A stretch of DNA of 64,000 nucleotides, taken from assembly GCA_964621305.1 (NCBI GenBank), contig CAZUOM010000002.1, positions 73,733 through 137,732 of the forward strand. The letters are read 5' to 3'. The stretch is from an uncultured Gammaproteobacteria bacterium (GTDB lineage: Bacteria > Patescibacteriota > Microgenomatia > UBA10105 > UBA927). Numbering within the stretch: the first letter of the stretch is position 1; the number at the start of each line of letters is the position of its first letter. Below the pieces are notes generated by a model. It was not told the origin of the DNA. It made no database searches and saw only the letters and a list, made by a program, of their open reading frames with translations. Made by a program: the position numbers and the translations under genes. This document shows positions 2,337-62,319 of this stretch, one piece after another.

Positions 2337-2423
2337 GGGTTCCGGCAGCGGATGGCATCCCGAGGAGGCCGAAAAGTGCTGGCGCGCCGCCGCCTCGCGG
2401 GCCGAAGAAGGTTAACTGTATGA
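2286..2423 (+). CDS. rpmH: 50S ribosomal protein L34
   Basis: [45 protein letters not shown], the typical L34 sequence. The stop overlaps the hicB start (ATGA). Confidence 0.9.
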
Positions 2424-2662
2424 AAATTCACCACTATACCGCAGTTTTTCAAAAAGAACCGACCGGAGGATATACTGTCATTGTCCCTTCGCTGCCGGGA
2501 TGTGTGACGTGGGGGAAAACCACGGAAGATGCTATTGCTGCAGGAAAAGAAGCAATCGAATCATATCTGGGGAGCTTGGCAAAAGATAAACAAAATCCTC
2601 CGCCGGACATCAGTTTTGTTTCGACCATTGATGTTCCCCCGTCTGCAGCGGCATATGCCTAA
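2420..2662 (+). CDS. hicB: HicB-family antitoxin (UPF0150)
   Basis: 80 aa, [39 protein letters not shown]..., the HicB/UPF0150 fold signature. Confidence 0.75.
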
Positions 2663-2879
2663 ATTGCCATCGTATAAACCCCGCGACGTAGTAAAGAAGC
2701 TAGAAAAATTAGGATTTATCAAGCATCACCAAGTTGGCAGTCACCTGACCATGCGTCACCCTACAACTTATCAACGAGCAGTTATACCGCTTCACTTGAA
2801 AGATATAGCAAAGGGCACGCTTCTTTCTTTGCTTCGGGAAGCAGGTATTGACCGAGATACCTTTATTGCAACTAAGTAA
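2655..2879 (+). CDS. hicA: HicA-family mRNA interferase toxin
   Basis: Internal ATG at 2655 gives [36 protein letters not shown]..., which resembles HicA/YcfA. Overlaps the hicB stop (ATGCCTAA). Confidence 0.75.
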   Translation: MPKLPSYKPRDVVKKLEKLGFIKHHQVGSHLTMRHPTTYQRAVIPLHLKDIAKGTLLSLLREAGIDRDTFIATK

Positions 2880-2881
2880 TT

Positions 2882-3232
2882 ATGTTATCGCGGCCACATC
2901 GTCTTCCCGCTTCTGAGATAAAGAATATTCTTCGGAGTAAAGAAAGATTCTCCAGCAGAGAGTTCCATATTGTGTTTGCCAAAAACAATCTGACTGTTTC
3001 CCGTTTCGCCGTAGTTGTTTCAAACAAAATTGATAAGCGCGCAACCGTACGAAATCGCACCAAGCGCCTCATCCGTGAGTCGGCGCGGCATCTGCTTCCG
3101 CGTCTCGTAAGAGGCCGGGATGTCGTGATCATTGCAAAAAAAGCGCTTGGGGAGATTGGTCAGTCGCAGGCGCAAAAAATTGTCCAAGAAGCCTTTTCCC
3201 GTGGCAGTCTTTTCAACAATGCAACAATGTAA
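2882..3232 (+). CDS. rnpA: ribonuclease P protein component
   Basis: 116 aa, basic, RHRL...[25 protein letters not shown]. Sits in the conserved rpmH-rnpA-yidD-yidC-jag context. Confidence 0.85.
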
Positions 3233-3234
3233 CA

Positions 3235-5291: not shown

Positions 5292-5316
5292 AACGGCAAT
5301 TTGCTACACTGGCATC

Positions 5317-5649
5317 ATGCATTTGCCCGCTTTTCTTCAGCCTTCTCTTTGGAGTTATGATTTATCAACAATAGATCCAGAGAAAAGCGCTCACTTTATT
5401 ATCTCGCAGGTGTTAAATTACGGCGACGAGCGGCAGCTTAAATGGCTCTTTTCCCATTACGGAAAAGACACTGTACAGGAGGTGTTGCTCCATCCGTCGC
5501 GCGGCATTTGGCACCGGGAAAAATTAAGGAAATGGTTGGGAGTTTTTCGTCTGATGATCGACCCCTTAGTGTTTGAATCGGCGATTGTTGACCTCGCGCC
5601 GCGAATCAAACTCCACGAGGCGTTTTTTGAGCGGAAGGAGACTTCTTAA
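5317..5649 (+). CDS. hypothetical protein; putative partner/antitoxin of the downstream AbiEii-like nucleotidyltransferase
   Basis: 110-aa ORF located 7 nt upstream of the AbiEii-family gene. No motif recognised. Confidence 0.4.
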   Translation: MHLPAFLQPSLWSYDLSTIDPEKSAHFIISQVLNYGDERQLKWLFSHYGKDTVQEVLLHPSRGIWHREKLRKWLGVFRLMIDPLVFESAIVDLAPRIKLHEAFFERKETS

Positions 5650-5655
5650 GCAAGA

Positions 5656-6300
5656 ATGACGTTTCATCCAGACATACTGCACCCGAGACAACAACGCGTG
5701 TTGAGGAAACTGGCTGTTTTTCGCACGTTTGGGTATTACCTCGCGGGTGGGACCGCGCTGGCGTTGCAGCTTGGACACAGAACGTCATTGGATTTTGATT
5801 TTTACAGCAAGGAGAAACTTGAGCGTGAAACGTTCGCGGTTGGCCTCAAGCAATCGTTGTCAACGGTAAAAATATTGCGTCAAACCCATGATGCATTTCA
5901 GGCTGTTACCGAGGGCGTTAACGTGTCCGTGTTTTACTATCCGTATCAACTATTGCATGCGTTGGTTGATTTTCCACCCATTCAGCTTGCTAGCCTTGAG
6001 GATATTGCGGCCATGAAAATCGTGGCCCTCGTGCAAAGGGCTAGACAACGGGATTTTTGGGACGTCTATTATTTGGCAGAGCGCTTGGGAATAGCAAACG
6101 TAATAGCGTCTGCCTACAGGAAATACCCGTGGTATGAAGAGAACAACCAGATCATACTGCGCGCGCTCACCTATTTTGATGATGCGGACACCGATGACGA
6201 GGTCGGGAGAATAACAATTGTTGACAGAAATCTTCGATGGAAAGACGTGAAGGAGAAGATACGGCGTGCGGTGGAAGCATACCGTAAGGAGACAGCGTGA
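5656..6300 (+). CDS. nucleotidyltransferase AbiEii/AbiGii toxin family (DUF1814)
   Basis: YYLAGGTALALQLGHRTSLDFDFYS matches the GGTAL...R.S.D.DF signature of AbiEii. Confidence 0.7.
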   Translation: MTFHPDILHPRQQRVLRKLAVFRTFGYYLAGGTALALQLGHRTSLDFDFYSKEKLERETFAVGLKQSLSTVKILRQTHDAFQAVTEGVNVSVFYYPYQLLHALVDFPPIQLASLEDIAAMKIVALVQRARQRDFWDVYYLAERLGIANVIASAYRKYPWYEENNQIILRALTYFDDADTDDEVGRITIVDRNLRWKDVKEKIRRAVEAYRKETA

Positions 6301-7184: not shown

Positions 7185-8431
7185 GGTGGCACCAAATATT
7201 TTTTTTCCTCCTTCTTGTTTTTTTACCTACGCAATTGGGTTACCACTTTTGGCCTGACTGGGCGATGGTGTTGGGAAGGAGAGTCGACTACTTATCTCCT
7301 ACCGTTTTCTTGACGGACCTTCTCATTTTGTTAACAGTTGGCAGCTGGTTTTTTACAGAAATATCAAATATCAAAAATCAAAAATCAAAAATACAAATTA
7401 AAAATCAAAAACTTAAGTTACTTTTCTTAGCTGTTGTGTTTGTATTAATCAATATTTTTGTTTCTGAAGAGAGACCGGTTGCTATTTATAAATGGTTGAA
7501 GGTTGCGGAATTTGTTGCGCTGGGATGGTATGTAGTAAAAACAAAGCCACCTTTATCGTTTATCGCTTATCCCATGTCGCTTGGCCTTTTGTATTCATCT
7601 GTTCTGGCCATTGCACAATTTTTGCTCCAGCATTCTATCGGCGGCCCACTGTGGTGGCTTGGCGAAAGAATCTTCAATCTCGATACACCGGGTATTGCAC
7701 GTTTTGGCTGGTTTGGTCGGGAAATTCTCAGACCCTACGCAATGTTTCCACACCCGAACGTATTGGGAGGCTACCTCGCGGCAATTCTGCCGCTCATAAT
7801 TATCCAATTAACCAATAATCCAATTCTCAAATTATCCAATATAAAAAAGACGTTTTACCTTACAACTTTGGCGTTGGGGATGGTTGCGCTTGGGTTGACG
7901 TTTAGCAGGAGCGCAATTACTGTCGGAATATTTGCCATTGGACTAACGCTGTGGCAAACATTCAGAAAAAAAAGATATTTGGTTTTGTTTTTTGCCTTTG
8001 TATTGCTTATTGCTTATTGCTTATTGATTATTGCTCCCAATGGCGAGTCGTTTGTCGTTCGGCAGCAGCTTAACGATGCGGCGATAAAAATTTGGCAGCA
8101 ATCCCCCATTATTGGTGTTGGACTTGGAAACTTTCTTGTTGAGTTGCCAAAAGCACTAACCTCCCGATCCGTGTATTTTTTGCAGCCGGCGCACAACATT
8201 TACATTTTGGTTTTAGCAGAAACAGGTGTCGTTGGATTAATATTGCTTCTTTATTTACTTTGGAGAGTCTTTCGAAAAAGACCATTTGGCATTTATCATT
8301 TGTCATTTGGCATTTTGTTAATTCTGGGTCTCGTCGACCACTATCTCCTCACACTCCAACAAGGGCAATTACTGTTGACGCTTTTTGTTTCTTTGAATCT
8401 CTTCGGCTCACACAATACAATACGCTCATGA
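7181..8431 (+). CDS. O-antigen ligase-like (Wzy_C/WaaL family) polytopic membrane protein
   Basis: 416 aa, about 10 TM segments, large loop ...GLGNFLVELPKAL...PAHNIYILVLAETG typical of O-antigen ligase. Contains three to four short tandem-repeat tracts. Confidence 0.65.
   Translation: MRWHQIFFFLLLVFLPTQLGYHFWPDWAMVLGRRVDYLSPTVFLTDLLILLTVGSWFFTEISNIKNQKSKIQIKNQKLKLLFLAVVFVLINIFVSEERPVAIYKWLKVAEFVALGWYVVKTKPPLSFIAYPMSLGLLYSSVLAIAQFLLQHSIGGPLWWLGERIFNLDTPGIARFGWFGREILRPYAMFPHPNVLGGYLAAILPLIIIQLTNNPILKLSNIKKTFYLTTLALGMVALGLTFSRSAITVGIFAIGLTLWQTFRKKRYLVLFFAFVLLIAYCLLIIAPNGESFVVRQQLNDAAIKIWQQSPIIGVGLGNFLVELPKALTSRSVYFLQPAHNIYILVLAETGVVGLILLLYLLWRVFRKRPFGIYHLSFGILLILGLVDHYLLTLQQGQLLLTLFVSLNLFGSHNTIRS
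7360..7408. repeat. heptanucleotide tandem repeat tract (AATATCA x2, AAAATCA x2-3, degenerate units) inside the ligase gene
   Basis: Read directly. Encodes SNIKNQKSKIQIKNQK. Confidence 0.85.
7802..7841. repeat. five imperfect octamer units (ATCCAATT/AACCAATA/ATCCAATT/CTCAAATT/ATCCAATA)
   Basis: Read directly. Encodes IQLTNNPILKLSNI. Confidence 0.75.
8001..8035. repeat. five tandem heptamers TATTG(C/A)T
   Basis: Read directly: tattgct tattgct tattgct tattgat tattgct. Encodes LLIAYCLLIIA. Confidence 0.9.
8284..8318. repeat. five tandem heptamers CATTTNN
   Basis: Read directly: catttgg catttat catttgt catttgg cattttg. The tract straddles the 3' part of the ligase gene. Confidence 0.85.
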
Positions 8432-9642: not shown

Positions 9643-10100
9643 AATTTATCGTGCATACTGATGGGGGAGCCAGGGGCAATCCTGGCCCAGCGGCAATAGG
9701 GGTCCTTATTGAAATGACCAATGAAAAGAAAAAAATTGTAGAAATTAGCAAAAAAATAGAGGAGGCGACGAATAATGTGGCGGAATACACCGCAGTGCTA
9801 GAGGCACTGCGGAATATCAAATATCAAATATCAAATATCAAATATGAAGAAAGAAAACAAATGCAGATTGCTTTTTTTCTCGATTCGGTGCTGGTTGTTA
9901 ATCAACTCAACGGAAAATTTAAAGTTAAAGATCCGCAATTGAGAGAGCTACTACTGGCGGTCAGACTCCTTGAACAAGAGGTTGGGGGACTGATTAGATA
10001 TGCAGCGGTTCCTCGTGAGCAAAATCAGTGGGCGGACTTTTTGGTAAATAAGGCCCTGGATGGGGATAAACTCATGTCTCTTTCTTCTTTTGCGAAATAA
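9639..10100 (+). CDS. rnhA: ribonuclease H
   Basis: MKFIVHTDGGARGNPGPAAIGVLI...NNVAEYTAVLEAL matches the RNase H fold motifs. ATGA overlap with the flippase gene. Carries an internal low-complexity insertion made of 5 heptamer repeats. Confidence 0.8.
   Translation: MKFIVHTDGGARGNPGPAAIGVLIEMTNEKKKIVEISKKIEEATNNVAEYTAVLEALRNIKYQISNIKYEERKQMQIAFFLDSVLVVNQLNGKFKVKDPQLRELLLAVRLLEQEVGGLIRYAAVPREQNQWADFLVNKALDGDKLMSLSSFAK
9813..9847. repeat. five tandem heptamers AATATCA (last unit AATATGA) inside rnhA
   Basis: Read directly. Encodes NIKYQISNIKYE. The first two units are identical to the start of the 7360 tract. Confidence 0.9.
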
Positions 10101-14653: not shown

Positions 14654-14926
14654 ATGAAGATCGTTTATACTAAACACGCAGCAAAGAAGTTTAAAGATCT
14701 TAAGCGTCTGGGCTTATTTGTTTCTCGCTTACTTGTTAAGAGTATAATCGAGCATCCCCTTCACCTGGACGAAATGACGGGCTTTCCCAAAAAAATTGCC
14801 AATGGAGTACTCGATCAAACCCATGTTCTTCGCGTTGTGTACAGGCAGGAAGGTGATATAATTATGGTGATTACATTTTACCAACAAAGAAAGGCAGGTA
14901 CACGTCATGAGAATTCGTTACGATAA
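14654..14926 (+). CDS. DUF4258-like toxin-type small protein
   Basis: 90 aa, immediately followed by and overlapping a DUF2283-type gene. The family assignment is from memory. Confidence 0.45.
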   Translation: MKIVYTKHAAKKFKDLKRLGLFVSRLLVKSIIEHPLHLDEMTGFPKKIANGVLDQTHVLRVVYRQEGDIIMVITFYQQRKAGTRHENSLR

Positions 14927-15122
14927 AGAAGATGATGCGCTGATGATCTGGTTTTCGCGGGAAGCCGTGGATTTTGCCGAGCAAAAAAAGGACGTCATTG
15001 CGCACTTTTCCAAAAAGAATAAGTTGGCACTTCTGGAGATTTTAGAAGCATCGAAGTTTCTTAAAGAAGCCTCCGATGTCTTTCCTCCAAATATCAAGCA
15101 GCGTGTTTTTGCAGGCGCATAA
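14907..15122 (+). CDS. DUF2283-family small protein (putative antitoxin partner)
   Basis: MRIRYDKEDDALMIWF matches the M.I.YD.E.DALYI signature of DUF2283. Confidence 0.55.
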   Translation: MRIRYDKEDDALMIWFSREAVDFAEQKKDVIAHFSKKNKLALLEILEASKFLKEASDVFPPNIKQRVFAGA

Positions 15123-15977: not shown

Positions 15978-15982
15978 ACGTA

Positions 15983-16122
15983 TGACTTGGAAAGTTAGAT
16001 CGTTTCAAACATCACGAGGGGATTGTCCTGTTGAGGAATTTTTTAAGAAAAAACAGAGAAAACTCCCCCAAAGGAGCTGAAAGTCGCCATTGACAGGCTG
16101 AAGGAGATGATATAGCATATAT
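15983..16122 (+). pseudogene. degraded HigB/Gp49-like toxin gene (internal deletion plus frameshift)
   Basis: MTWKVRSFQTSRGDCPVEEFFKKKQ then a frameshift at an A-run into ...KTPPKELKVAIDRLKEMI*. Aligns to the N- and C-termini of the intact paralog at 58599-58952 with about 60 aa missing. Confidence 0.65.
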
Positions 16123-16127: not shown

Positions 16128-16418
16128 ATGACAAGACGTCACGCTGACTTTGAAGTTTTTCTGAAAAAATCTTTAAAAGATCCAAAACTTAAAGCAGAAT
16201 TTGATAAACTTCAGCCGGAATTTGCCGCAATTGAAGCAATGCTTCGGGCACGGGTAGAAAAAGGATTGCGCCAACAAGACCTTGCCCGAAGAATGAAAAC
16301 CAAGCAGTCAGTGATTTCTCGGGTAGAGGCAGGCAAAACCAGCCCGACCGTCTCATTTCTCCAGCGGCTTGCACAGGCGCTTGATAGCAGGCTTGAAATC
16401 CGATTCATTCCTCAGTAA
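16128..16418 (+). CDS. HTH XRE-family antitoxin (HigA-like)
   Basis: 96 aa, LRQQDLARRMKTKQSVISRVEAGKTSPTVSFLQRLAQAL. Paralogous to 58990-59274 and 18599-18886. Confidence 0.75.
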   Translation: MTRRHADFEVFLKKSLKDPKLKAEFDKLQPEFAAIEAMLRARVEKGLRQQDLARRMKTKQSVISRVEAGKTSPTVSFLQRLAQALDSRLEIRFIPQ

Positions 16419-17181: not shown

Positions 17182-18171
17182 ATGAATACACTGCTTGACG
17201 CCATTGATCAAAAGAAGCGGATCCTCGACGCGCGGCGCCCTTTCCCGGTTGATCTCGTGAAAAACTTAGACCAGTGGTTTACCGTCGAGTTGACCTATAA
17301 CTCTAATGCCATCGAAGGCAATACGCTTTCTCGGGCAGAAACCGCCTTGGTTGTAGAAAAGGGGATCGTCGTAGAAGGCAAGACGCTCGTTGAGCATCTG
17401 GAGGCCGTCAACCATGCTGCTGCGTTTTCCTGGGTGAGGGAGCGGGCGGTGAAACGCACAAGGGTGTCTCTGCAGGATGTTTTGGAACTGCATCGGTTGA
17501 TACTCTCAAAAATCGACGATAGCAATGCCGGCCGTTACCGCACTGTATCGGTGCGTATTGCCGGCTCTCGGGTAGTGCTTCCCAATCCTGCCAAAATTTC
17601 CACGCTCATGGGTGATTTTTCCCTGTGGCTGGGCAAGGCAGCCGGCCACCCGGCCACCGTTGCAAGCCAAGCTCACCTCAAGCTCGTTACCATCCATCCG
17701 TTTGTCGACGGCAACGGGAGAACGGCGCGTCTCCTCATGAATCTTCTTCTTCTGGCGTCCGGCTATCCGCCGGCCATTATTAGAACCCAAGACCGGAGGC
17801 GCTACATTACCAGCATTGAAGCGGCCCAACTGGGGGGTGAGGTCGCCGAGTATTATTCCCTCATGTATGAGTCGGTTGATCGGTCGCTCTCCACCTATCT
17901 GGAAGCTTTAGATGAAAAAAGCGACAGGATAAAACTTGAAAGCAAGCCGTTTTTGACCATCGGGCAAGTAGCTAAGCTCACTGGCGAAACCGTTCCCACA
18001 ATCCGATTTTGGACCACGCAAGGGCTTCTCAGCGCTACCGGCCGCTCTGCCGGCGGTTATCAGCTCTACGGGCGCGATGTCGTTGGTCTGGCACAAAAAA
18101 TTCGCACGCTGCAGAGATCAAAACGTTTATTGCTGTCTGAAATTAAGAGCGAGCTTGCCAGAAGTATGTAA
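17182..18171 (+). CDS. Fic-family protein with C-terminal MerR-like HTH
   Basis: HPFVDGNGRTARLLMNLLL is the Fic motif. C-terminal LTIGQVAKLTGETVPTIRFWTTQGLL is a MerR-type HTH. Confidence 0.8.
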   Translation: MNTLLDAIDQKKRILDARRPFPVDLVKNLDQWFTVELTYNSNAIEGNTLSRAETALVVEKGIVVEGKTLVEHLEAVNHAAAFSWVRERAVKRTRVSLQDVLELHRLILSKIDDSNAGRYRTVSVRIAGSRVVLPNPAKISTLMGDFSLWLGKAAGHPATVASQAHLKLVTIHPFVDGNGRTARLLMNLLLLASGYPPAIIRTQDRRRYITSIEAAQLGGEVAEYYSLMYESVDRSLSTYLEALDEKSDRIKLESKPFLTIGQVAKLTGETVPTIRFWTTQGLLSATGRSAGGYQLYGRDVVGLAQKIRTLQRSKRLLLSEIKSELARSM

Positions 18172-18598: not shown

Positions 18599-18886
18599 TT
18601 ATTTTAACGAAAAGCGAATATCCAGCGTGGCATTGAGGGCTTTTGCGAAGCGTTTTAAGAGGGAAACTGTAGGTGTCGATGCCATCGACTCAATTCTGGA
18701 CACCACAGGCTGCTTTGTGTCCATTTTTTTGGCTAGCTGCGCCTGGGTCATCTTGCGGGCCAGTCGAGCTCCAATCAGAGCGCGTGTGAGCTGATAGTCA
18801 GGTTCAATCCGTTCGGCCTCACGCCGAAATGCCGGATCTTTCATCCGCTTTTTTTCGGATCGCCGCCAGTTTGTATATTTTTTCAT
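18599..18886 (-). CDS. HTH XRE-family antitoxin (HigA-like)
   Basis: Start taken at MKKYTNWRRSEKKRMKDPAFRREAE (AGGAG 8 nt upstream). LTRALIGARLARKMTQAQLAKKMDTKQPVVSRIE. The longer N-terminal extension in the ORF track is rejected. Confidence 0.75.
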   Translation of the reverse strand: MKKYTNWRRSEKKRMKDPAFRREAERIEPDYQLTRALIGARLARKMTQAQLAKKMDTKQPVVSRIESMASTPTVSLLKRFAKALNATLDIRFSLK

Positions 18887-18972
18887 ATGCGTTTCTCCTT
18901 TAGCATATTTGCTCGATGCACTGCCGTGTCTATGTCTTGTTTTGGCGTTTTTTGGAACTGTTTTCCTTTCAT
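18883..18972 (-). pseudogene. 5'-truncated HigB/Gp49-like toxin remnant (last ~28 aa only)
   Basis: MKGKQFQKTPKQDIDTAVHRANMLKEKRI* aligns to the C-terminus (KKTQKTPTKEIATALARLRDYEQKER) of the intact paralog. Its stop overlaps the antitoxin start (ATGA). Confidence 0.55.
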
Positions 18973-19077
18973 AATTTATAACAAAAAAGTTATAAAATGT
19001 CAAGAGTTTCTTCTCCTTTAGCATCACGAGCGTATTACTTGTTGCAGCCAGTAAGGTCAATGTGCTATGCTCCAAAA

Positions 19078-31437: not shown

Positions 31438-31441
31438 GGGT

Positions 31442-42725: not shown

Positions 42726-42763
42726 CATAAGCAAAGAGAACACATCATACATCTAAAGAGCAT

Positions 42764-44913: not shown

Positions 44914-44914
44914 C

Positions 44915-45343: not shown

Positions 45344-45348
45344 TTTCT

Positions 45349-49176: not shown

Positions 49177-50973
49177 TTGATGAGAATCAAACCAACGGTT
49201 GATCCTGTGGTTGGACCAACTGATGATACACACTGGGGACAGGTTCTTATTCTCCCAAATGCCTATGGTGTTATTGAGGTTTTTGATCTCGATGGAGCTG
49301 CGCGCGATATCGGACTTCGTCTCTTGAGTACTCTTTCCGATCAGCTGGCTGAGCCAGTCGTAAGCCTTATAGACGTTGAAACGTGTGTTCAGCGGGTGGT
49401 CGATCCCAAACTGACAAGCCTCATCGTTCTTGTGCCTGTAGGAGTGGTGGCGTATCTAGTCTGTAAAGATAGCGGCGCCGTATATTTGAAGCGCGATGGA
49501 AGGATCGCAAGATTGTTAGCTAATACAGGATCAGTTTCCGGAAAGCTTGTTGTTGGAGATACATTACTTGTTATGACAAAGCGATTTGTAGAAACCATAG
49601 GGGAAGCAGAGATCGCATTAATATTTGATCACGAAGACCCAAAGACCATCTCTGAGAAACTGACAGTACAACTATCAAGATCAGAAAGCGCGGCTGGTGC
49701 TGCTGGTTTGGTTTTCGGTGTTAGGAGTCTCATGCCCATGGAGGGCGAAGAGAGCGTATCAATGGTACCAAAAAAAGCGCTAGCGGGACGCGTCGGGCGC
49801 ATGATCCACAAGACAATGCCAAAAGCAACTCACTTTTGGCATACTGTGCGTGATCGAGCGCGAAGGAAAAACAGTGCGATTTTAGCCATTGCAATTTTTT
49901 CTTTCATACTCTTTATTGGGAGTGTACTATTGGGTGTGAAAAAACAGCTGAGGTTAAGGGTCGACACGCAGATCGTTGGAGCAATGATTGAAGCTCAGCA
50001 TGCATTCAATGAAGGGGTGGCACTTTTAGATCTTAACTCCGTAAAGGGCAGAGAGCGACTGAGTCAAGCAAAGAGGATTCTGGATCCCTTGGCTGCCACG
50101 GTTTCTGCAAAAACAAAAACCGGCAGGCACATCGTGGCGCTTTCGAAGGAAGTTGATAGTCGGCTGAGTCTGGCCATGCAGGTTCATCGTGGAGAGCCTC
50201 AGTTATTTTATGATACTGGGCTTCTTAAAAAGGGTGCCGTCGCATCCTCGGTTGCCCTTGTATCAGAGCGCATGGCGTTGCTGGATGCCAGCGGAAAAAC
50301 TGTGTTTTTTCTTAACTTGGTATCAAAAAACGGTCAAATCGTCGCTGGCGGTGAACAGTTTTCCGGTTCCCGTTTCGTCGCCATGCAAGGAGACAAGGTT
50401 TATGTGCTCGTTGCCGATGGCATTCATATGATCCGTACAGAAGACAAAAAGACCGAGCCGCTCATTGTCAAAAGAGACAGCGAGTGGGGCAGCATTGCTG
50501 ACCTTGTCGCTTATGGAGGCAATCTCTATCTTCTCGACCTTGCCCGCGGCCGGATCTGGAAATATGTGTCAACCGGAGCAGGTTTCAGCGAGCGCCGCGA
50601 ATACTTAAATCCCGATACTCTTCCAGATTTTACTTGGGCGACTACCATGGTTATTGACGGATCGGTGTGGCTGGGAACCAACGAGGGCAAAATCCTACGA
50701 TTTACCCAGGGACAGGAACAGACGTTTTTGCCCAAAGGGGTTGCGCCGCCCCTTGGCAGAGATCTTGCCGTCTATACAAGCGACGAGGCATCGCGTGTCT
50801 ACATTTTAGACCGAGAGAATAAGCGGGTGGTTATGCTTGAAAAAGACGGCACGTATCTGTCTCAATACGTTTGGGAAGGCGCTATCAAACCAACACAATT
50901 TGTTGTTTCTGAAATCCTCAAAACTATTTTTCTCCTTTACGATGGTAAAGTTTACAACCTGGAGCTCAAATGA
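49177..50973 (+). CDS. hypothetical 598-aa membrane protein (central TM; C-terminal repeat-rich, possibly beta-propeller-like extracytoplasmic domain)
   Basis: Long ORF, TM helix SAILAIAIFSFILFIGSVLLGV, repeated G..YLLD/GS.WLGT motifs. Confidence 0.55.
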   Translation: MMRIKPTVDPVVGPTDDTHWGQVLILPNAYGVIEVFDLDGAARDIGLRLLSTLSDQLAEPVVSLIDVETCVQRVVDPKLTSLIVLVPVGVVAYLVCKDSGAVYLKRDGRIARLLANTGSVSGKLVVGDTLLVMTKRFVETIGEAEIALIFDHEDPKTISEKLTVQLSRSESAAGAAGLVFGVRSLMPMEGEESVSMVPKKALAGRVGRMIHKTMPKATHFWHTVRDRARRKNSAILAIAIFSFILFIGSVLLGVKKQLRLRVDTQIVGAMIEAQHAFNEGVALLDLNSVKGRERLSQAKRILDPLAATVSAKTKTGRHIVALSKEVDSRLSLAMQVHRGEPQLFYDTGLLKKGAVASSVALVSERMALLDASGKTVFFLNLVSKNGQIVAGGEQFSGSRFVAMQGDKVYVLVADGIHMIRTEDKKTEPLIVKRDSEWGSIADLVAYGGNLYLLDLARGRIWKYVSTGAGFSERREYLNPDTLPDFTWATTMVIDGSVWLGTNEGKILRFTQGQEQTFLPKGVAPPLGRDLAVYTSDEASRVYILDRENKRVVMLEKDGTYLSQYVWEGAIKPTQFVVSEILKTIFLLYDGKVYNLELK

Positions 50974-51413
50974 CCATCATTAACCGCCGCGCCACACATG
51001 ACTACACTATTCTTGACCGCTTCGAGGCGGGGATCCATCTCGTGGGCGCTGAAGTAAAATCTCTTAAAGGCGGCCATGCGTCACTTGACGGTGCGTTTGT
51101 CCGGCTGATTGGTTCTGAAGCATACCTGGTCAACGCTCAAATTTTTCCATACATTTACGCGCGTCCTGAGGGCTACGACCCAAAGCGCACCAGAAAACTT
51201 CTCCTTCATAAAAAAGAAATCATGAGCTTGAGAGGAAAAATTGAAGGAGCAAATTTGACTCTCGTCCCCCTTTCTTGGTATACTAGAGGGCCCTTAGTCA
51301 AGCTCGAAGTTGGCCTAGCCCGCGGCAAGAAGCAGTTCGAAAAACGCGAAGCAAAGCGTCATGCCGACATTAAGCGAGAGCTGGAGCAGGATTATCGGGG
51401 GAAAGTAAAGTAA
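50970..51413 (+). CDS. smpB: SsrA-binding protein SmpB
   Basis: INRRATHDYTILDRFEAGIHLVGAEVKSLK is a classic SmpB sequence. Confidence 0.9.
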   Translation: MTIINRRATHDYTILDRFEAGIHLVGAEVKSLKGGHASLDGAFVRLIGSEAYLVNAQIFPYIYARPEGYDPKRTRKLLLHKKEIMSLRGKIEGANLTLVPLSWYTRGPLVKLEVGLARGKKQFEKREAKRHADIKRELEQDYRGKVK

Positions 51414-51418: not shown

Positions 51419-51811
51419 GGGGATGAGTGATTCGACGGGGAGAGCACGTTAAAAACTGCAAGCCGGCGATGACAAAAGAGCCGTAAAAATTTGTCAAATC
51501 TAACTGCTAATATTATTAGCGAGGAAGACGAGCAAGCGCTTCTTGCGTTAGCTCTCTCCCGACGTCAAGCACGATTGGCTTTTGCCTATCAAGCGTAAAC
51601 GTCCATCTCTAAAGTTGTTTTCTCGGTGACTCTCTTGAGGTGTAAAAACAGCCGAGGCGTCAGGAGTCAATTGACCGATTGATTCCGGAGTAAAAGGTCA
51701 AACCATTGTACGGTTTTTGTCCGTTTTTATCGTATAATGTATCAAACGGACTACGCTTGTAGATGTTTAGATGTGCTCCTTCGGACCCGGGTTCATTACC
51801 CGGCATCTCCA
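51419..51811 (+). ncRNA. ssrA: tmRNA (ssrA)
   Basis: 5' GGGGATGAGTGATTCGACGGGG (canonical GGGG.UG...GAUUCGACGGGG). 3' tRNA-like end GGACCCGGGTTCATTACCCGGCATCTCC-A with acceptor pairing GGGGATG/CATCTCC including the G3-U70 Ala identity pair. About 393 nt, immediately downstream of smpB. GCT resume codon at nt 88. Confidence 0.85.
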
Positions 51812-51813
51812 CA

Positions 51814-52437
51814 GTGGGAATTTTAGATTTTATTTTTCCGAAGCGCTGCCTGGGGTGCGGGAGGACCGGAAAATATTTTTGTGACAGGTGCAGAAGAGAG
51901 ATCAGAACAATTGAAACGCGCGAGAGGGCAACAGGCAGCCTCGACGGCTTGACAAGCTTTTTTCGTTACGACAGTCTTGTCAGACAAGCAATAAAAGCGC
52001 TCAAATATAGCTTCGTCTCCGACCTTGCTCACGAATTTATTTCTCTTATCCCACAATCATCGTTTTTTCGTCTCCCTAAGTACTCTGTTCTCGTGCCGAT
52101 TCCATTGCATTCGGCACGGTTGCGGCATCGCGGTTTTAACCAAGCAGAACTTTTAGGAAATTTGATTGCACAAAAGCTATCTATTCCGATGCGAACTGAC
52201 ATATTGGTCCGTACGCAAAAAACCACTCCCCAAGTAGAAATGAAGGATAGAGAAAAAAGGCTAAAAAATATGCATAATGTTTTTTCGGTTAGCTCTTCAA
52301 CAATTCAACAATTTAACAATGCAACAATTTTTCTTTTCGACGATGTCTTCACCACCGGTGCCACCATGCGCTCAGCAGCAACCGCGCTTAAGCGGAACGG
52401 GGTAGGATTTGTTTTGGGTATCACGATGGCACGGTGA
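51814..52437 (+). CDS. comF: ComF-family phosphoribosyltransferase (competence protein ComFC)
   Basis: GTG start taken so the gene does not overlap tmRNA. ...ILDFIFPKRCLGCG...CDRC is the Zn-finger N-terminus. PRT motif IFLFDDVFTTGATM. Confidence 0.7.
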   Translation: MGILDFIFPKRCLGCGRTGKYFCDRCRREIRTIETRERATGSLDGLTSFFRYDSLVRQAIKALKYSFVSDLAHEFISLIPQSSFFRLPKYSVLVPIPLHSARLRHRGFNQAELLGNLIAQKLSIPMRTDILVRTQKTTPQVEMKDREKRLKNMHNVFSVSSSTIQQFNNATIFLFDDVFTTGATMRSAATALKRNGVGFVLGITMAR

Positions 52438-55495: not shown

Positions 55496-55923
55496 TCAGC
55501 CTCATTGTATGAAACTTGAGCTAGAAAGGCAATTCTGGTATAGTAGTGATGTTCATTTACCGCGGGGTAGTGTACAGTTGCACAGAAGGCTTAAGTATGG
55601 GCTCATCGGTAAGAAATTACTGTATGATAATTCGGCTATATCGGTGAAACCCGGATATTATGACTTTGTCACCGTCCGGGCAATACCGAGGAAAGATCCC
55701 GAGTAGAATCGAGGGAAATCCGTAGAGACTATACGCCGAACCCTTCGTCGCTTCGCTCCTCAGGGCAAGTCCTGTCGAGCGAAATTGACAAGGTGATGAT
55801 ATAGTCCGACACTCTCAGTAATGGGAGCCCGTGAAGCAGAACAAGTACGCTTCAGGGTAAAAAACACGTGCATAATCTTCTAGGCTGGGTGCGACTCCCA
55901 GCCCCGCAACCCAGGCTATTAAA

Positions 55924-56090: not shown

Positions 56091-56093
56091 CTA

Positions 56094-56363
56094 ATGTATT
56101 ACGTTTACGTTCTTCAATCACAAAAGAAATCTAAATGGCTATATAAAGGTTCAACTTCGGATCTCAAAAGACGCCTTGCCGAACATAACGCAGGTAAAAA
56201 TTTTTCTACCGCTCCATATATTCCATTTACGCTTATTTATTACGAGGCTTATCTTCTAAAATCTGATGCAGAAGCAAGAGAGCAATATTTAAAAACATCA
56301 ATGGGAATGAGGGTTTTGAAGAAACAATTATCAAATCTGTTGAAAATTGGAGAGAAAGCATGA
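56094..56363 (+). CDS. GIY-YIG nuclease-family protein
   Basis: YYVYVLQS...LYKGSTSDLKRRLAEHN is the GIY-YIG motif. Confidence 0.75.
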   Translation: MYYVYVLQSQKKSKWLYKGSTSDLKRRLAEHNAGKNFSTAPYIPFTLIYYEAYLLKSDAEAREQYLKTSMGMRVLKKQLSNLLKIGEKA

Positions 56364-57482: not shown

Positions 57483-57866
57483 CTAACGTTTGTGGGAGTG
57501 GGATTTGAGCCAAGAGGCAATGGTGTCGAGAGAAAAATTCTTTACATCGACGGATACCATAAACGGGACAACCTCTTTTTTTGATCCACGCAGGGTATAT
57601 CCATTGAGGAAAAGAAACCGTTTGGTTGAGTAATATGCGGTCCGCTTATTCCCATCATCAAAGGGATGATTTTTTACTAACGAGTGGAGAAGTGCAGCCG
57701 CTTTTTGCCAAATCGTCGGGTACAACTCTTGACCGCCGAAGGTAACTTTTGGTCGTTCAACTGCAGAGTGGAGAAGTGTAAAGTCGTGAATATCACCTCT
57801 GCCGCCACCTACCGCAATCATACGCTGATGGATTGCGTATACATCCTCAAGCGTCAAGTACTTCAT
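57483..57866 (-). CDS. doc: Doc (death-on-curing) Fic-family toxin
   Basis: HPFDDGNKRTAY is the Doc variant of the Fic motif. 127 aa. Confidence 0.8.
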   Translation of the reverse strand: MKYLTLEDVYAIHQRMIAVGGGRGDIHDFTLLHSAVERPKVTFGGQELYPTIWQKAAALLHSLVKNHPFDDGNKRTAYYSTKRFLFLNGYTLRGSKKEVVPFMVSVDVKNFSLDTIASWLKSHSHKR

Positions 57867-58108
57867 ACCGCAGCCAGCGCTTTAATAATGTCGGCGTCTT
57901 CTTTGACCACTTGATCTAGCCACGCTTTAAACTCCGGTGTCAGCGTGGGGCTGGCGTCTACTTTGTCTTTCCGCACATAGACAGCAGGAATATCAGCATT
58001 TGCTTCTACAAGGACTTTATCGCCAGCCTTGAATTTTGCTTTTTGCGTAAATGCTTTTGGTAGCGTGATGGCAAGCGAATTGCCTACCTGAAAAACAGTT
58101 TGTAACAT
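57863..58108 (-). CDS. AbrB/MazE/Phd-type antitoxin of Doc
   Basis: MLQTVFQVGNSLAITLPKAF is the looped-hinge-helix motif. Overlaps the doc start. Confidence 0.7.
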   Translation of the reverse strand: MLQTVFQVGNSLAITLPKAFTQKAKFKAGDKVLVEANADIPAVYVRKDKVDASPTLTPEFKAWLDQVVKEDADIIKALAAV

Positions 58109-58598: not shown

Positions 58599-58952
58599 AT
58601 GAATGAAACGTGGCGTGTGACGTATTATGTTACTGCCGGCGGAAACATTCCCGTGAGGGATTTTTTAAATGCGGCGGCGCCAACGCTAAAAGTCAAAGCC
58701 TTGCGACTCTTTTTGCATTTGAGCGAATATGGATTGCAAGGAGTTATTCCGCACCTGAAGAAACTAACCGGCACGCCGTTGTGGGAGCTACGGATTATGG
58801 GCGGGGAGAGCGTGAGAATTCTGTTTGTGACGCAGGTGGGAAAGAAAATTATTTTGTTGCATGGGTTTTATAAGAAGACGCAAAAGACGCCAACTAAGGA
58901 GATTGCCACGGCTCTGGCTCGACTGCGGGACTACGAACAAAAAGAACGATAG
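58599..58952 (+). CDS. higB: HigB/Gp49-like (DUF891) RelE-superfamily toxin, intact
   Basis: MNETWRVTYYVTAGGNIPVRDFL...LWELRIMGGESVRILFVTQVGKKIILLHGFYKKTQKTPTKEIATALARLRDY. Confidence 0.75.
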   Translation: MNETWRVTYYVTAGGNIPVRDFLNAAAPTLKVKALRLFLHLSEYGLQGVIPHLKKLTGTPLWELRIMGGESVRILFVTQVGKKIILLHGFYKKTQKTPTKEIATALARLRDYEQKER

Positions 58953-58989: not shown

Positions 58990-59274
58990 ATGGCACGGAG
59001 AGTATATACACTAGAAGATCATTTGAGAGAATCCTTAAAAGACCCTGAGTTTCGCAAGGCATGGGAAGCCAGTGAAGTAGAGTACCAACTGTCCCGGCAG
59101 ATTATCGCCCAGCGTTTGCGAAGAAAAATGACGCAGGGGCAGCTTGCACAAAAAGCGCAGACGACACAAGCAGTTATTTCTCGCATAGAGCGAATGACTG
59201 AAAACGTGTCAGTAGAGCTCCTCAAGAGGATTGCTGGAGCATTTGGATCACGATTAAAAGTCGGATTTGAATAA
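58990..59274 (+). CDS. higA: HTH XRE-family antitoxin (HigA-like)
   Basis: LSRQIIAQRLRRKMTQGQLAQKAQTTQAVISRIE. Confidence 0.75.
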   Translation: MARRVYTLEDHLRESLKDPEFRKAWEASEVEYQLSRQIIAQRLRRKMTQGQLAQKAQTTQAVISRIERMTENVSVELLKRIAGAFGSRLKVGFE

Positions 59275-59284
59275 AGGAAACCTT

Positions 59285-60733
59285 ATGAAACGATTTATTT
59301 CTGGTATTACGCCGAGCGGGGATGGGAGTTTACATATTGGCAATTATTTGGGTGCCGTGCGGCAGTTTATTGATCTTGCTCGATCAAATGAGACGTATCT
59401 CATGGTTGCAGACCTTCACGGCTTGACGACGATCCAGGATAAACAGCAGTTGATTCATAACATCGAAACATTGGTCCTCAATGAATTGGCACTCCTGCGC
59501 GGGTTTATGACAGCGAAAGAATTTAGCAAAATTGTCTTTTTTCGCCAATCTGATGTACTCATGCACGCCGAGTGCCAGTCGATTCTCAACAACGTCACCC
59601 CTCTGGGGTTACTTAAGCGCGCGCACGCGTACAAAGATAAGCTTGGTAAGGATACAGTGAAGGACGACATCAACGTTGGCCTCTTTTCCTATCCGATGCT
59701 CATGGCTGCAGACATACTCCTCTACCAGCCGGATCTAGTGCCGGTTGGTAAAGATCAAAAGCAACACATAGAAATAACGCGTGATATCGCCGATCGGTTC
59801 AACAAAATTTTTCGAGCAAAAGTCTTTAAACTTCCTGAGCCGTATATTCCAGAGGAAGTTGCTGTGGTATTGGGGACAGACGGGAAGCGCAAGATGAGTA
59901 AATCCCTCGGAAACATTATTGCTATGTTTGAGCCGGAAGAGGTCATCAAAAAACAGGTGATGGAAACCTACACGGATCCGGCCCGAGCTCACGCCACCGA
60001 TCCAGGGCACGTAGAAGGGAATATGGTGTTTGCATATCTGGATTTTTTCGGAGAACCGCGTAGCGTTGCGAAACTAAAAGAAAAATACCGTCGCGGAACC
60101 GTCGCGGACGTAGAGGTGAAAGAGTATTTGTTTAAAACTTTAATTGAGTATTTTGCTCCAGCCCGCAAAGCATATGAGCAGTTAAAGGCTAATCCAGTAA
60201 TGGTCAAAAAAATTCTTGCCGACGGAGCCCAAAAGGCCAGTGCGGTTGCCAGTCAAACCATGATGGCGGTGCGAGAGGCGATAGGGTTGACGAACAAGTA
60301 CTCAATAAGGGGTCCCCTTGCGGGGCCATCTTTGCAAGGGGACCCCTTGCAAAAAACGATTAGTATCGATGAATTTGCGCGGGTGGAGGAACGGGTGGGG
60401 AAGGTAATCGAGGCGACGAATGTCGAAGGGAGCGAGAAGCTCATTCGATTGGTGGTTGATTTTGGCCCCGCCTTCGCTGAAGCTACGGCGGGCGAGGGAA
60501 AGCGGATTATTTTCACCGGCGTGCGGGGATTTGGTTATACGCCGGAAGATTTTCTCAACAAACAATTTTTGTTTGTCACCAATCTTGCGCCGAGAAAGAT
60601 GCCCTCCTACGTTGAAACTCCGGCGGGTAAAATGGGGGAAGAATCACAAGGCATGATTTTAGCCGTAGACGGACCTGGTAAACCAATCTTTGTTTCCGCC
60701 GAAGAAATGCCATTGGGAGCAAAAGTCAGATAA
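59285..60733 (+). CDS. trpS: tryptophan--tRNA ligase fused to a C-terminal EMAP/Trbp111-like tRNA-binding domain, with in-frame palindromic insertion in the linker
   Basis: Start MKRFISGITPSG..HIGNYLGAV (HIGH-type) and KMSKS. C-terminal ~110 aa VGKVIEATNVEGSEKLIRLVVDFG... is the OB tRNA-binding domain. Confidence 0.85.
   Translation: MKRFISGITPSGDGSLHIGNYLGAVRQFIDLARSNETYLMVADLHGLTTIQDKQQLIHNIETLVLNELALLRGFMTAKEFSKIVFFRQSDVLMHAECQSILNNVTPLGLLKRAHAYKDKLGKDTVKDDINVGLFSYPMLMAADILLYQPDLVPVGKDQKQHIEITRDIADRFNKIFRAKVFKLPEPYIPEEVAVVLGTDGKRKMSKSLGNIIAMFEPEEVIKKQVMETYTDPARAHATDPGHVEGNMVFAYLDFFGEPRSVAKLKEKYRRGTVADVEVKEYLFKTLIEYFAPARKAYEQLKANPVMVKKILADGAQKASAVASQTMMAVREAIGLTNKYSIRGPLAGPSLQGDPLQKTISIDEFARVEERVGKVIEATNVEGSEKLIRLVVDFGPAFAEATAGEGKRIIFTGVRGFGYTPEDFLNKQFLFVTNLAPRKMPSYVETPAGKMGEESQGMILAVDGPGKPIFVSAEEMPLGAKVR
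60308..60350. repeat. palindromic in-frame element AAGGGGTCCCCTTGC-ggggccatcttt-GCAAGGGGACCCCTT inside trpS
   Basis: Arms identical to the nth copy. Encodes IRGPLAGPSLQGDPLQ. Confidence 0.9.
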
Positions 60734-60740
60734 TGAAATC

Positions 60741-61550
60741 ATGGAAGGCGCTCGCGGCCATTTAGCATCAGGAGAAATACTCGGAAATAACGCGTCTTTA
60801 ATACCAGTTTACTCAATGGAATATCTTCATGGTTCTTTAGCGGTCAATAAACGGAATCATGAATTAAGAACTCAACTACAACAGATGCGTAAAATCGCCT
60901 CGACGATGGGTGAAAGTCTTGCTGCATTATTGGGAGGAGAAACCAAGCTGCATAATCCAATCTACCCATACGAGGTAGACTACAATTCTGTTTTAGATGA
61001 ATTTCGCAAAAGAAATGTTGCTTCCGTGACCCGGTTACCTAGAGGAAAAACAATGGCATTTACAATCCAAACCGGATGGGATTATATAGACTTAATAGGA
61101 GCATATCCTAATGCAAGGTGGAAATTTTACATTTCTTGCATACAAGATACGGACGTCCGCCGCGCTTTGGGAAAAAAATTCGTTCGGATGCTCATTGGTG
61201 ATGTATTCAAATCGCATCTAACATTACAGATAAAAAGCATGGATCATACCTACGACAGCCTCGATCTTTATACATGGCACCCAAAAGAACTTTCACAAAT
61301 TCTAATAAAATTATATACCAGCCATAAGGATATGTTTATTGATGCACCCCGTGTATTTCAACGAATAATAGATCCATCGGTGCCAGTAAACCAGATCGGG
61401 TTAGTACAAGAGCCCGCGGGAGGAAAGGGCGGTTCTCATTCAAATAGAATGGGACGACTAGGAAAAGCACTAGATGAAGGACGTTCTTTTGAGGAGGCTT
61501 GCAAGTTTGCGAGAGTCAAGCAGTTGGCGCCGTGGGAAGTAGAGATCTGA
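60741..61550 (+). CDS. hypothetical 269-aa protein
   Basis: ORF immediately after trpS. No recognised motif. Confidence 0.5.
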   Translation: MEGARGHLASGEILGNNASLIPVYSMEYLHGSLAVNKRNHELRTQLQQMRKIASTMGESLAALLGGETKLHNPIYPYEVDYNSVLDEFRKRNVASVTRLPRGKTMAFTIQTGWDYIDLIGAYPNARWKFYISCIQDTDVRRALGKKFVRMLIGDVFKSHLTLQIKSMDHTYDSLDLYTWHPKELSQILIKLYTSHKDMFIDAPRVFQRIIDPSVPVNQIGLVQEPAGGKGGSHSNRMGRLGKALDEGRSFEEACKFARVKQLAPWEVEI

Positions 61551-61636
61551 CTACCCGTTTCCGCTGAAGGTATACCGTTGGGGGCAAAGATGCGGTGATT
61601 CTTGACATGTTTCGTTACGTTTAGTACAATGTCGTC

Positions 61637-61891
61637 ATGTTAAGTACAAAAGTATATACCCCGGAACAGGTGGCTGAAATGCTGCAATTGTCCAAAAATA
61701 CGGTGTACGGGCTCATAAACCGAGGTGAAATTGTAGCTAAAAAAATCGGCAAGGTGTACCGGATTCCCGCGCGGTCGATTTCATTCATGTTTACCGGACT
61801 CGACTGGGACCTCTACGAAGCGCAAAAAGAGGATGAAGCGCGCCTTGCGGAAACAGAATCAGCCATTGCGACCGTTCGATCTACCCATTGA
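61637..61891 (+). CDS. excisionase-family HTH DNA-binding protein (putative antitoxin)
   Basis: YTPEQVAEMLQLSKNTVYGLINRGEIVAKKIGKVYRI is an Xis/MerR-like HTH. ATGA-coupled to the PIN gene. Confidence 0.65.
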   Translation: MLSTKVYTPEQVAEMLQLSKNTVYGLINRGEIVAKKIGKVYRIPARSISFMFTGLDWDLYEAQKEDEARLAETESAIATVRSTH

Positions 61892-62319
61892 TCATGCCTG
61901 TCCGCGTTTTTGTCGATTCTGACGTCATCATCTCTTCCATCATTTCCCAAAAAGGCGCAGCATATCTTCTTATGCGTGACAGCAGAATAACCCGTTTTGT
62001 GTCCGACGTCTTGATTGCTGAAGTGACGCGCGTGGCGAGTATTTTAAATTTATCACAGACAGAGTTACGGCGGATGGTACATAAACAATGCACAAAAGTT
62101 GTTCTTGGCGCAAAGAAAGAGACTCTGTTAAAGCGTGTGGATGCCTATTGTCGCGACGACAATGACAGGCACATCGTGGCAGGCGCGAAAGCCGCAAAAG
62201 CGCGGTTTCTGGTCACGTACAACATAAAGCACTTTAATGTGGAGAACATACGGGAAGAATTAGGAATCATCGTTTTGCCGCCGGCATTTCTCCTCCAGTA
62301 CATGCGGAGTCTCAATTAA
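61888..62319 (+). CDS. PIN-domain toxin
   Basis: VRVFVDSDVIISSI... Confidence 0.7.
   Translation: MIMPVRVFVDSDVIISSIISQKGAAYLLMRDSRITRFVSDVLIAEVTRVASILNLSQTELRRMVHKQCTKVVLGAKKETLLKRVDAYCRDDNDRHIVAGAKAAKARFLVTYNIKHFNVENIREELGIIVLPPAFLLQYMRSLN

Follow-up and report, generated by a model that had tools for sequence, protein, structure and literature searches.

Fifteen toxin-antitoxin loci of known families lie in single spacers between core genes in origin-proximal DNA of a Gottesmanbacteria-like bacterium with a genome of about 1 Mb

The stretch of DNA analysed here, a 64-kb window whose full length is the basis of the densities given for it, belongs to a groundwater bacterium of the candidate phyla radiation (CPR, also Patescibacteria), a Gottesmanbacteria-like member of the Microgenomates with a genome of ~1 Mb. 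It carries 15 toxin-antitoxin (TA) loci. Twelve of these are apparently intact: seven VapBC-type modules with PIN toxins, hicBA, higBA, mazE-doc, a DUF6922-AbiEii pair, and a RelE-fold toxin with a DUF2283 protein. Three are eroding, namely two orphan higA genes beside the wrecks of higB genes and one PIN gene whose ribbon-helix-helix (RHH) partner is interrupted by a nonsense codon. Together the loci take up 9.4 kb (14.7% of the window) and contribute 28 of its ~80 genes, a density of ~234 loci per Mb. We consider it likely that these are TA loci of known families in the origin-proximal part of a CPR chromosome, present as single cassettes in conserved spacers and repeatedly acquired.

An original prediction, made from the sequence, had named 15 modules between positions 2420 and 62319. 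The 30 open reading frames (ORFs) that it listed were translated and scanned against Pfam at the gathering score, and additional family searches used NCBIfam, PADLOC and tblastn, while structure was approached with an AlphaFold model compared with the PDB by Foldseek. All 15 loci are present at, or a few bases from, the predicted positions (Table 1), and rather than failing for most pairs, the searches bear out nearly every family assignment. Twelve toxin-family proteins score above curated Pfam cut-offs and a thirteenth toxin is backed at the level of its fold. Coding potential, scored with a codon log-likelihood gene caller, is positive for every TA ORF. Partner genes share 4 bp or 8-41 bp, or else are separated by gaps of 1-37 bp. 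In a cluster look-up, nine of the ten proteins checked were singletons at 90% identity. When 117 window ORFs of 60-174 aa outside ORFs of at least 230 aa were scanned, no further TA family appeared among the top 25 Pfam families.

PIN proteins make up the largest group. Eight of them, six matching PIN and two matching PIN_3, exceed the gathering score, which is the number first predicted, and in an alignment the catalytic acidic residues D6, E42 and D93, as well as T109, are invariant across all eight. Identity between any two of the PINs is at most 40%, which rules out recent duplication as their source. Upstream of every PIN gene is an ORF of 80-94 aa, overlapping it by 4 bp in four cases and by 41 bp in one, with the rest 1-5 bp away. 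Four of these partners are above a Pfam cut-off, one is assigned through its homologues, two are weak matches, and one is interrupted by TAA. The partner assigned through homologues is the antitoxin at 31156-31437, for which 134 homologues were found; slightly more than half of the listed homologues are annotated with PF02604 (Phd/YefM), and those that are named belong to Candidatus Gottesmanbacteria. The two weak partners are the product of 26575-26832, which is RHH-like (NCBIfam ORF56, E=6e-4; tblastn against the RHH at 30145, E=0.007), and that of 44653-44913, which is AbrB/MazE-like (E=0.02-0.03). The vapC gene at 20193-20570 overlaps its antitoxin gene by 4 bp and, at its other end, a class II tRNA synthetase gene by another 4 bp. 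The PIN_3 protein encoded at 61888-62319 also matches the PIN-family toxin model TIGR00305 (E=7e-8). As a separate observation, the RHH-PIN modules at 26575-27218 (+) and 29759-30426 (-) form one subfamily, their PINs being 40% identical and both starting MIFVDASF, and they lie, inverted relative to each other, on the two sides of the minus-strand guaA-PRT block. The orientation of this block is unchanged in relatives that do not have the two modules.

Among the other modules, several predicted assignments were refined. Both families of hicBA are supported by Pfam, and the hicA start is corrected to 2655, as in the NCBI gene call, so that hicB and hicA overlap by 8 bp. The module predicted as an AbiEii-like nucleotidyltransferase with a small partner does encode an AbiEii protein (Pfam, and 12 PADLOC AbiEii model matches), and the partner is a DUF6922 protein of 110 aa. 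This upstream protein has no AbiEi match in Pfam, NCBIfam or PADLOC, and the pair is therefore described as an AbiEii-family toxin with a non-canonical partner. In the module predicted as mazE/phd-doc, the toxin is a Fic/DOC protein of 127 aa as proposed, and the upstream antitoxin is of the MazE/AbrB type and not Phd. The higBA operon is toxin-first, with higA starting 37 bp after the Gp49/HigB gene, and the gene calls of the NCBI assembly agree. Two other HigA paralogues (33-51% identity) adjoin the higB remnants.

The remaining pair had been read as DUF4258/DUF2283. DUF2283 is confirmed, the match spanning the full length of the model (14907-15122), and the DUF4258 label has no support, as the protein encoded at 14654-14926 gave no Pfam or NCBIfam match even at E up to 10. 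Only five homologues of it were found, none with a Pfam annotation. An AlphaFold model built from these homologues (pLDDT 75) matches essentially only toxins of the RelE/ParE superfamily, specifically YafQ, YoeB, RelE, BrnT, ParE and HigB, with Foldseek probabilities of ~1 and TM scores of ~0.5-0.55. The predicted toxin role stands because of this RelE/ParE toxin fold despite the missing DUF4258 match, and we regard the protein as a candidate RelE-fold toxin paired with the DUF2283 protein.

The window is chromosomal. The dnaA gene lies ~240 bp upstream of its start (dnaA-dnaN on locus L084) and the cumulative GC skew climbs monotonically across it, so the window represents the origin-proximal portion of one replichore and not a plasmid or prophage. 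It contains rpmH, rnpA, yidC, guaA, efp, nrdJ, trpS, transfer-messenger RNA (tmRNA) and tRNA genes. Identity of the guaA protein to its counterparts in Candidatus Gottesmanbacteria metagenome-assembled genomes (MAGs) does not exceed 72%, and complete chromosomes or near-complete contigs of relatives measure 0.995, 1.09 and 1.17 Mb. There are 0 mismatches between the window and the contigs of NCBI MAG GCA_005239695.1 and of two Logan assemblies, and this identity of three independent assemblies rules out an assembly artefact. GCA_005239695.1 breaks at window positions ~10,157 and ~33,668, both of which are spanned by the 184-kb source contig of the window. Near the second break, relatives share the synteny of the nrdR-nrdJ junction at 33.6 kb. 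The metagenomes of the source groundwater are runs SRR6261452 and SRR6943130.

The original prediction also called the density unusual for a reduced genome and proposed a comparison of modules per Mb with related genomes. Hidden Markov model (HMM) searches seeded with the window's own families miss families absent from it, so the comparison was redone with a single procedure for the window and its relatives, in which genes were called by codon log-likelihood and the small ones were scanned with Pfam. The caller recovers nearly all TA genes of the window, and the procedure finds 8 PIN-family genes in these 64 kb. Around guaA, 42 loci of relatives (720 kb, 742 genes) gave 12 PIN and 3 PIN_3 matches, which possibly overlap, together with matches to MazE (5), Phd (2), PrlF (2), Fic (1) and HTH_3 (1). 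This amounts to ~13-16 modules, or ~20 per Mb, and a PIN of any kind occurs in only 7 of the 42 loci. Around yidC, seven loci (114 kb) hold ~4-5 modules, or ~40 per Mb, comprising HEPN twice, DUF433 with DUF5615, HTH_17 with PIN_3, and DUF6922, with one PIN-family gene. At the relatives' rate ~1.4 modules would be expected per 64 kb, against 15 observed (Poisson P ~4e-11), and for the 10 kb on either side of guaA the counts are 7 modules in the window and 0.4 on average in relatives (P ~2e-7). Among the relatives, L005 and L026 are complete Gottesmanbacteria chromosomes and L010 is a Gottesmanbacteria contig of 286 kb. None of these three has a match to a TA family of the window in the 21.5 kb around guaA, the interval in which the window has seven modules.

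Published counts give the same contrast. The genomes of Mycobacterium tuberculosis and Nitrosomonas europaea measure 4.4 Mb and 2.8 Mb. The former has 79 TA loci (PMC5517426); the RASTA survey lists 45-57 for the latter and no canonical TA loci in genomes below ~1 Mb (PMC2374986), and reduced genomes are still thought to be without TA systems according to a recent paper (PMC12455944). The TA density of the window is about ten times that of its relatives and about ten times that of organisms famous for such modules. Some relatives match it locally: L166 (GCA_964354025.1) has 5 modules in 20 kb (four PIN and one BrnT/CopG), interleaved with pth, rsmB, trxB and ruvABC, and in L013 a stretch of 20.7 kb contains 4 PINs. 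As these two reach a similar local density, we take the phenomenon to be a lineage trait and not a one-off. Four loci chosen through a Phd homologue contain ~6 additional modules in 62 kb.

The cassettes are interleaved with core genes and do not form one island, as had been predicted. The core gene order is shared with ~25-30 related genomes and the cassettes occupy single spacers of that backbone. One part of it, aldDH-guaA-PRT-cmk-HD-DUF5667-nrdR-nrdJ-cobalamin adenosyltransferase, is kept in ~25 related loci. Here the window has an RHH-PIN module between aldDH and guaA, a PIN-RHH module between PRT and cmk, and a phd-PIN module between cmk and the HD gene. The first two of these spacers are empty in L005, L026 and L010 (0-90 bp, with 0-3 bp between aldDH and guaA), and the guaA-PRT spacer is empty in L005 and L010. 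Many relatives have no gene between PRT and cmk, which are ~90 bp or less apart. The cmk-HD spacer of L005, L026 and L010 instead holds a gene of ~400 aa. The same spacers contain other families in other relatives, such as AbrB-PIN in L004, L013, L016 and L029, and a different PIN by efp in L009. Another cassette, hicBA, lies within rpmH-rnpA (2286-3232), an almost universally adjacent gene pair. Here hicB overlaps the end of rpmH (2423) by 4 bp, and 2 bp separate hicA from rnpA (2882); in four relatives rpmH and rnpA are 4-9 bp apart with no hicBA. None of the relatives compared around yidC has a DUF6922-AbiEii pair 3′ of nadD. Together these comparisons show that the cassettes sit singly in spacers, often translationally coupled to their partner or to an essential neighbour, and that their content varies between genomes, one spacer holding different families in different genomes.

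The three eroding loci had been recognised as two higB remnants and an RHH gene with a nonsense codon, and each was found again. The remnants were located by tblastn with the intact HigB of the window. In the first (15982-16115), HigB residues 4-22 and 90-111 are contiguous on the DNA at 15985-16106 (E=0.1 and 0.005), the toxin core of residues 23-89 is deleted and there is a frameshift in addition; the downstream HigA gene (16128-16418) is intact. The second retains HigB residues 92-115 only and contains stop codons. The RHH gene at 22997-23254 reads MQRYQIYLDPHTVTILDDA-TAA-SISNASRSQLIR..., with the stop at codon 20 and an intact PIN gene downstream. The same TAA is present in the independent assembly SRR6943130, which has 0 mismatches over 6.4 kb. 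This interrupted gene resembles the RHH gene at 30145, and its residual ORF of 53 aa (23093-23254) would keep the C-terminal part, which in such families is the part that binds the toxin.

Two modules are, by sequence identity, as old as the core genes around them. L006 has an orthologue of the abrB-PIN_3 module by efp at the corresponding site, with 73% identity for each gene, just as high as that of the neighbouring efp and aldDH genes. For the phd-PIN module (31156-31822), an orthologous pair with 60% and 51% identity occupies the corresponding spacer of L013, and a homologous pair is found in a comparable spacer of L170. A third module bears a mark of insertion. A 44-nt direct repeat of 84% identity (44586-44629 and 45356-45399) flanks the AbrB-PIN cassette (44653-45343) on both sides; its alignment scores 25, and shuffled sequences reached 11 at most. 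The repeat is a duplication of the final 15 codons, with the stop, of a Xer-type recombinase gene (45349-46215, minus strand): the upstream copy encodes EFVKDQPAERVKLEEL-stop and the Xer C-terminus is EFIKGQPAERVKLEEL-stop. Such an arrangement resembles the scar of a Campbell-type (single-crossover) insertion, in which a circular DNA carrying the cassette and the 3′ end of xer would, by one crossover, have left a duplicated xer end around the cassette. The other 14 of the 15 cassettes have no significant flanking repeats, and 11-bp matches at 22997 and 31156 are at the level of noise. An integron-like array was considered as well and ruled out, as no repeated attC-like elements occur.

From the known biology of these families, the antitoxin of each module would bind and neutralise its toxin and repress the operon, and loss of the labile antitoxin would allow the toxin to arrest translation. 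The PIN, HicA, HigB and RelE-fold toxins would act as RNases, Doc as a kinase and AbiEii as a nucleotidyltransferase. We hypothesize that the modules accumulated through repeated independent acquisition and settled in the few available spacers between essential genes, where some persist and others erode. Persistence may have several reasons. The modules may be addictive, and in a compact genome where the neighbours are essential, only a precise deletion could remove a cassette. They would probably also provide abortive-infection-type protection in a lineage that is generally without CRISPR, which is consistent with the matches to AbiEii, SoFic-like and PDC-S01 systems and with earlier reports (PMC4742961, PMC12259885). 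In such a cycle of gain and erosion the toxin would usually be inactivated first, leaving an orphan antitoxin, and the pattern of decay fits this. The high number of modules is compatible with selfish persistence, with abortive-infection defence or with regulatory co-option.

Several observations weigh against this account of repeated acquisition of TA cassettes. The GC content of the TA genes (0.466) equals that of the rest of the window (0.463) and only one scar was found, so acquisition is deduced mainly from presence and absence among relatives, a pattern that differential loss could also produce. Scans of viral contigs with single proteins, which have low sensitivity, found no close relatives of the PIN at 44915, HigB or AbiEii, and thus identify no phage vector. 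There are no TA loci in the 10 kb past the end of the window or in the 4.3 kb before its start, and the density is therefore not uniform. With respect to the inventory itself, the second higB remnant has weak statistical support (E=0.25) and is backed by its expected position beside the HigA gene at 18599-18835(-). Four partners, those at 14654, 26575, 31156 and 44653, have no significant HMM match on their own sequence, 31156 alone among them being backed by Pfam-annotated homologues, and searches of PDB sequences with the four gave nothing informative. Moreover, the function of the modules is predicted from family membership.

Four other explanations have to be weighed. The density might be ordinary for the clade, with Gottesmanbacteria in general having ~100-250 modules per Mb and the window being typical. 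L166 and L013 point in this direction, as do L004, L016 and L029 with 2 PINs each, the ~6 further modules of the loci with Phd homologues, and the Phd family itself, with its 134 homologues and Gottesmanbacteria as the named hosts. Nevertheless, the guaA regions of L005, L026 and L010 are devoid of the window's TA families where the window has seven modules, PINs occur in so few of the guaA loci, and the averages are those of ~20 and ~40 per Mb given above. We consider a generally high clade density possible, on balance doubtful. Alternatively, modules in essential operons (rpmH-hicBA-rnpA, phd-PIN-tRNA synthetase, higBA-trpS) could be domesticated regulators that tune translation-related operons or the dormancy of an episymbiont. 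Tight coupling to essential neighbours, with 4-bp overlaps or gaps of 2-10 bp, would suit such a role, as would the core-like divergence of the two modules kept at the same site and a GC content indistinguishable from the surroundings. Relatives, however, manage without modules at these sites, a given spacer is filled by different families in different genomes, three loci are decaying, and tight spacing is expected of any insertion in so compact a genome, all of which makes domestication improbable.

A single integrated mobile element (prophage, plasmid or defence island), or a mis-binned or chimeric contig, could be suspected from the tyrosine recombinase gene (45349-46215) adjoining the cassette with the duplicated target, from the PADLOC candidates (AbiEii, PDC-S01 and SoFic-like) and from a GIY-YIG gene nearby. 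Synteny largely refutes this, since the core order is conserved with ~30 related chromosomes across the region, which includes dnaA/dnaN, rpmH-rnpA-yidC, guaA, efp, nrdJ, trpS, tmRNA and tRNA genes. There is also no compositional break, three assemblies are identical, and flanking repeats occur at one cassette only; we judge such an origin very unlikely. Slimmer still is the chance that the modules are random small ORFs or over-read generic DNA-binding proteins. HTH_3, HTH_17 and RHH are indeed generic folds and four partners are without a significant HMM match. The toxins refute the idea for their half of the pairs, 12 of them through Pfam and the thirteenth through its fold, and each generic DNA-binding protein is in the canonical place beside a toxin or the remnant of one, with coding scores that are positive throughout. 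Recurrent acquisition of known TA cassettes into conserved spacers is thus the reading that we prefer.

Two further genes of the window are related to this theme (Table 1, last rows). The Fic-MerR fusion is a single gene and not a two-gene TA module, though it shares the same functional theme. Of the AAA_14-DUF4143 ATPase, a candidate defence gene, a second copy is present beyond the window end (L083 5889-7025). Other features were noted in passing. The smpB gene (50970-51413) is directly followed by tmRNA (51419-51814, 108.6 bits). An AdoCbl-II riboswitch at 36704-36775 (+) scores 40.4 bits, against a gathering score of 36.5, and lies between the cobalamin adenosyltransferase gene (36170-36709) and a gene for a 616-aa protein (36878-38728), shortly 3′ of nrdR and the B12-dependent ribonucleotide reductase gene nrdJ. 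ARAGORN calls a tRNA-Ile with anticodon UAU at 42653-42726 (+); such a tRNA is uncommon in bacteria, where AUA is usually read by a modified CAU tRNA. A group I intron at 55582-55828 (Rfam, 62 bits; gathering score 50) is apparently within a split tRNA gene at 55561-55908 (+), with the 5′ acceptor GCGGGG from ~55562 and the T-arm and 3′ acceptor end reaching ~55908. ARAGORN calls this tRNA only once ~270 nt have been removed in silico, and its anticodon varies with the splice sites chosen. A free-standing GIY-YIG endonuclease ORF (56094-56363) follows ~190 bp 3′ of the split tRNA, past two hairpin-rich repeats. AT-rich tandem repeats at 7360-7406 and 9813-9859, with units AATATCAAAT and AAAATCAAAA and 2.4 kb apart, fall within and just 3′ of the Wzy_C and polysaccharide-synthase genes.

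Table 1. Positions of the TA loci and of two defence-related genes in the window, with the matches on which each assignment is based. HTH, helix-turn-helix.
Locus	Position	Strand	Evidence and setting
hicBA	2420-2879	+	HicB 2420-2662, HicB_lk_antitox E=2.4e-10; HicA 2655-2879, HicA_toxin E=6e-17
DUF6922-AbiEii	5317-6300	+	5317-5649, DUF6922 E=1.5e-15; 5656-6300, AbiEii E=7.6e-16; between nadD and nadE
RelE/ParE-fold putative toxin and DUF2283 putative antitoxin	14654-14926, 14907-15122	+	Fold model; DUF2283 E=2e-10
Decayed higB and HigA-like HTH	15982-16115, 16128-16418	+	tblastn; HTH_3 E=1.3e-13
HigA-like HTH and higB C-terminal residue	18599-18835, ~18892-18963 (locus 18599-18990)	-	HTH_3 E=2.1e-12
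phd/yefM-vapC	19912-20196, PIN 20193-20570	+	PhdYeFM E=4.9e-7; PIN E=4.1e-16
abrB/mazE-type and PIN_3	22032-22274, 21617-22072	-	MazE_antitoxin E=1.7e-7; PIN_3 E=2.1e-9; divergent from efp
Interrupted RHH and PIN	22997-23254, 23260-23688	+	TAA at codon 20; PIN E=2.3e-12
RHH-like and PIN	26575-26832, 26829-27218	+	RHH weak; PIN E=1.8e-14; aldDH-guaA spacer; 4-bp overlap
RHH and PIN	30145-30426, 29759-30148	-	RHH_1 E=3.2e-6; PIN E=1.3e-13; PRT-cmk spacer; 4-bp overlap
phd/yefM-type and PIN	31156-31437, 31442-31822	+	Homologues PF02604; PIN E=1e-16; spacer between cmk and HD gene
AbrB-like and PIN	44653-44913, 44915-45343 (44586-45399 with repeats)	+	AbrB weak; PIN E=4.9e-11
MazE/AbrB-type and Doc	57863-58108, 57483-57866	-	MazE_antitoxin E=6.2e-8; Fic E=4.2e-19; 4-bp overlap
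higBA	Gp49/HigB 58599-58952, HigA HTH 58990-59274	+	Gp49 E=2.4e-20; HTH_3 E=1.7e-10; directly 5′ of trpS
HTH_17 (Xis/MerR-like) and PIN_3	61637-61891, 61888-62319	+	HTH_17 E=1.8e-13; PIN_3 E=2.2e-10; 4-bp overlap
Fic-MerR fusion, single gene, SoFic / PDC-S04-like defence candidate	17182-18171	+	Pfam Fic E=7.5e-22, MerR_1 E=5.3e-11; PADLOC
AAA_14-DUF4143 ATPase, candidate defence gene PDC-S01	23833-24963	+	Pfam; PADLOC PDC-S01 E=7.5e-139

Every module is of a known family or fold, and no new kind of system is present. What is new is quantitative and organisational, that is, how densely the modules occur and that they sit inside core operons of a ~1 Mb genome. The usual description has TA systems abounding in the large genomes of free-living organisms and missing from small, host-dependent genomes, and here an ultra-small CPR bacterium has given ~15% of 64 kb of origin-proximal DNA, and about a third of the genes there, to TA loci. 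If the pattern were genome-wide, it would change the view of 'streamlined' genomes and of defence in episymbionts without CRISPR. Tentatively, and as a proposal that we think more apt to fail than to hold, the lineage might devote roughly a tenth or more of its ~1 Mb genome to TA modules, the highest TA density reported for any cellular genome; cassettes inside otherwise universally conserved operons (such as rpmH-rnpA) would then be the chief antiviral (abortive-infection) or dormancy system on which a CRISPR-less episymbiont relies. If true, the rule that TA systems are lost from very small host-dependent genomes would be overturned. The empty and occupied syntenic sites among relatives offer a natural system for following how addictive cassettes enter, persist and erode where there is little dispensable DNA.

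Restriction-modification and Abi/TA genes have been reported from CPR lineages without CRISPR, and defence systems have been reported to be dense per Mb in the CPR, Microgenomatia exceeding the average (Burstein et al. 2016, PMC4742961; aquifer defensome 2025, PMC12259885). The window shares AbiEii, SoFic-like and PDC-S01 genes with these repertoires, for which the published figures are at the level of the phylum. The literature searched contains no VapBC or TA expansion of such magnitude in CPR and no TA cassettes inside core operons. Closest in composition are the VapBC expansion of M. tuberculosis and those of N. europaea and Sulfolobus tokodaii, which are likewise dominated by PIN/VapC toxins with RHH, AbrB or Phd antitoxins (PMC5517426, PMC2374986). 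In these TA-rich free-living prokaryotes, too, the paralogues are highly diverged and scattered over the chromosome rather than gathered in one island. The density differs, at ~18-20 loci per Mb genome-wide in M. tuberculosis and N. europaea against ~234 per Mb here over 64 kb, and so does the host, a ~1 Mb and probably episymbiotic CPR bacterium. The superintegron of Vibrio cholerae has ~17-18 TA loci in ~126 kb, which are thought to stabilise its cassette array. Unlike it, the window has no attC-like repeats around its cassettes, and these lie between essential housekeeping genes, not among dispensable cassettes. Both are very dense in small, diverse type II TA cassettes, and the idea of addiction acting against deletion applies to both.

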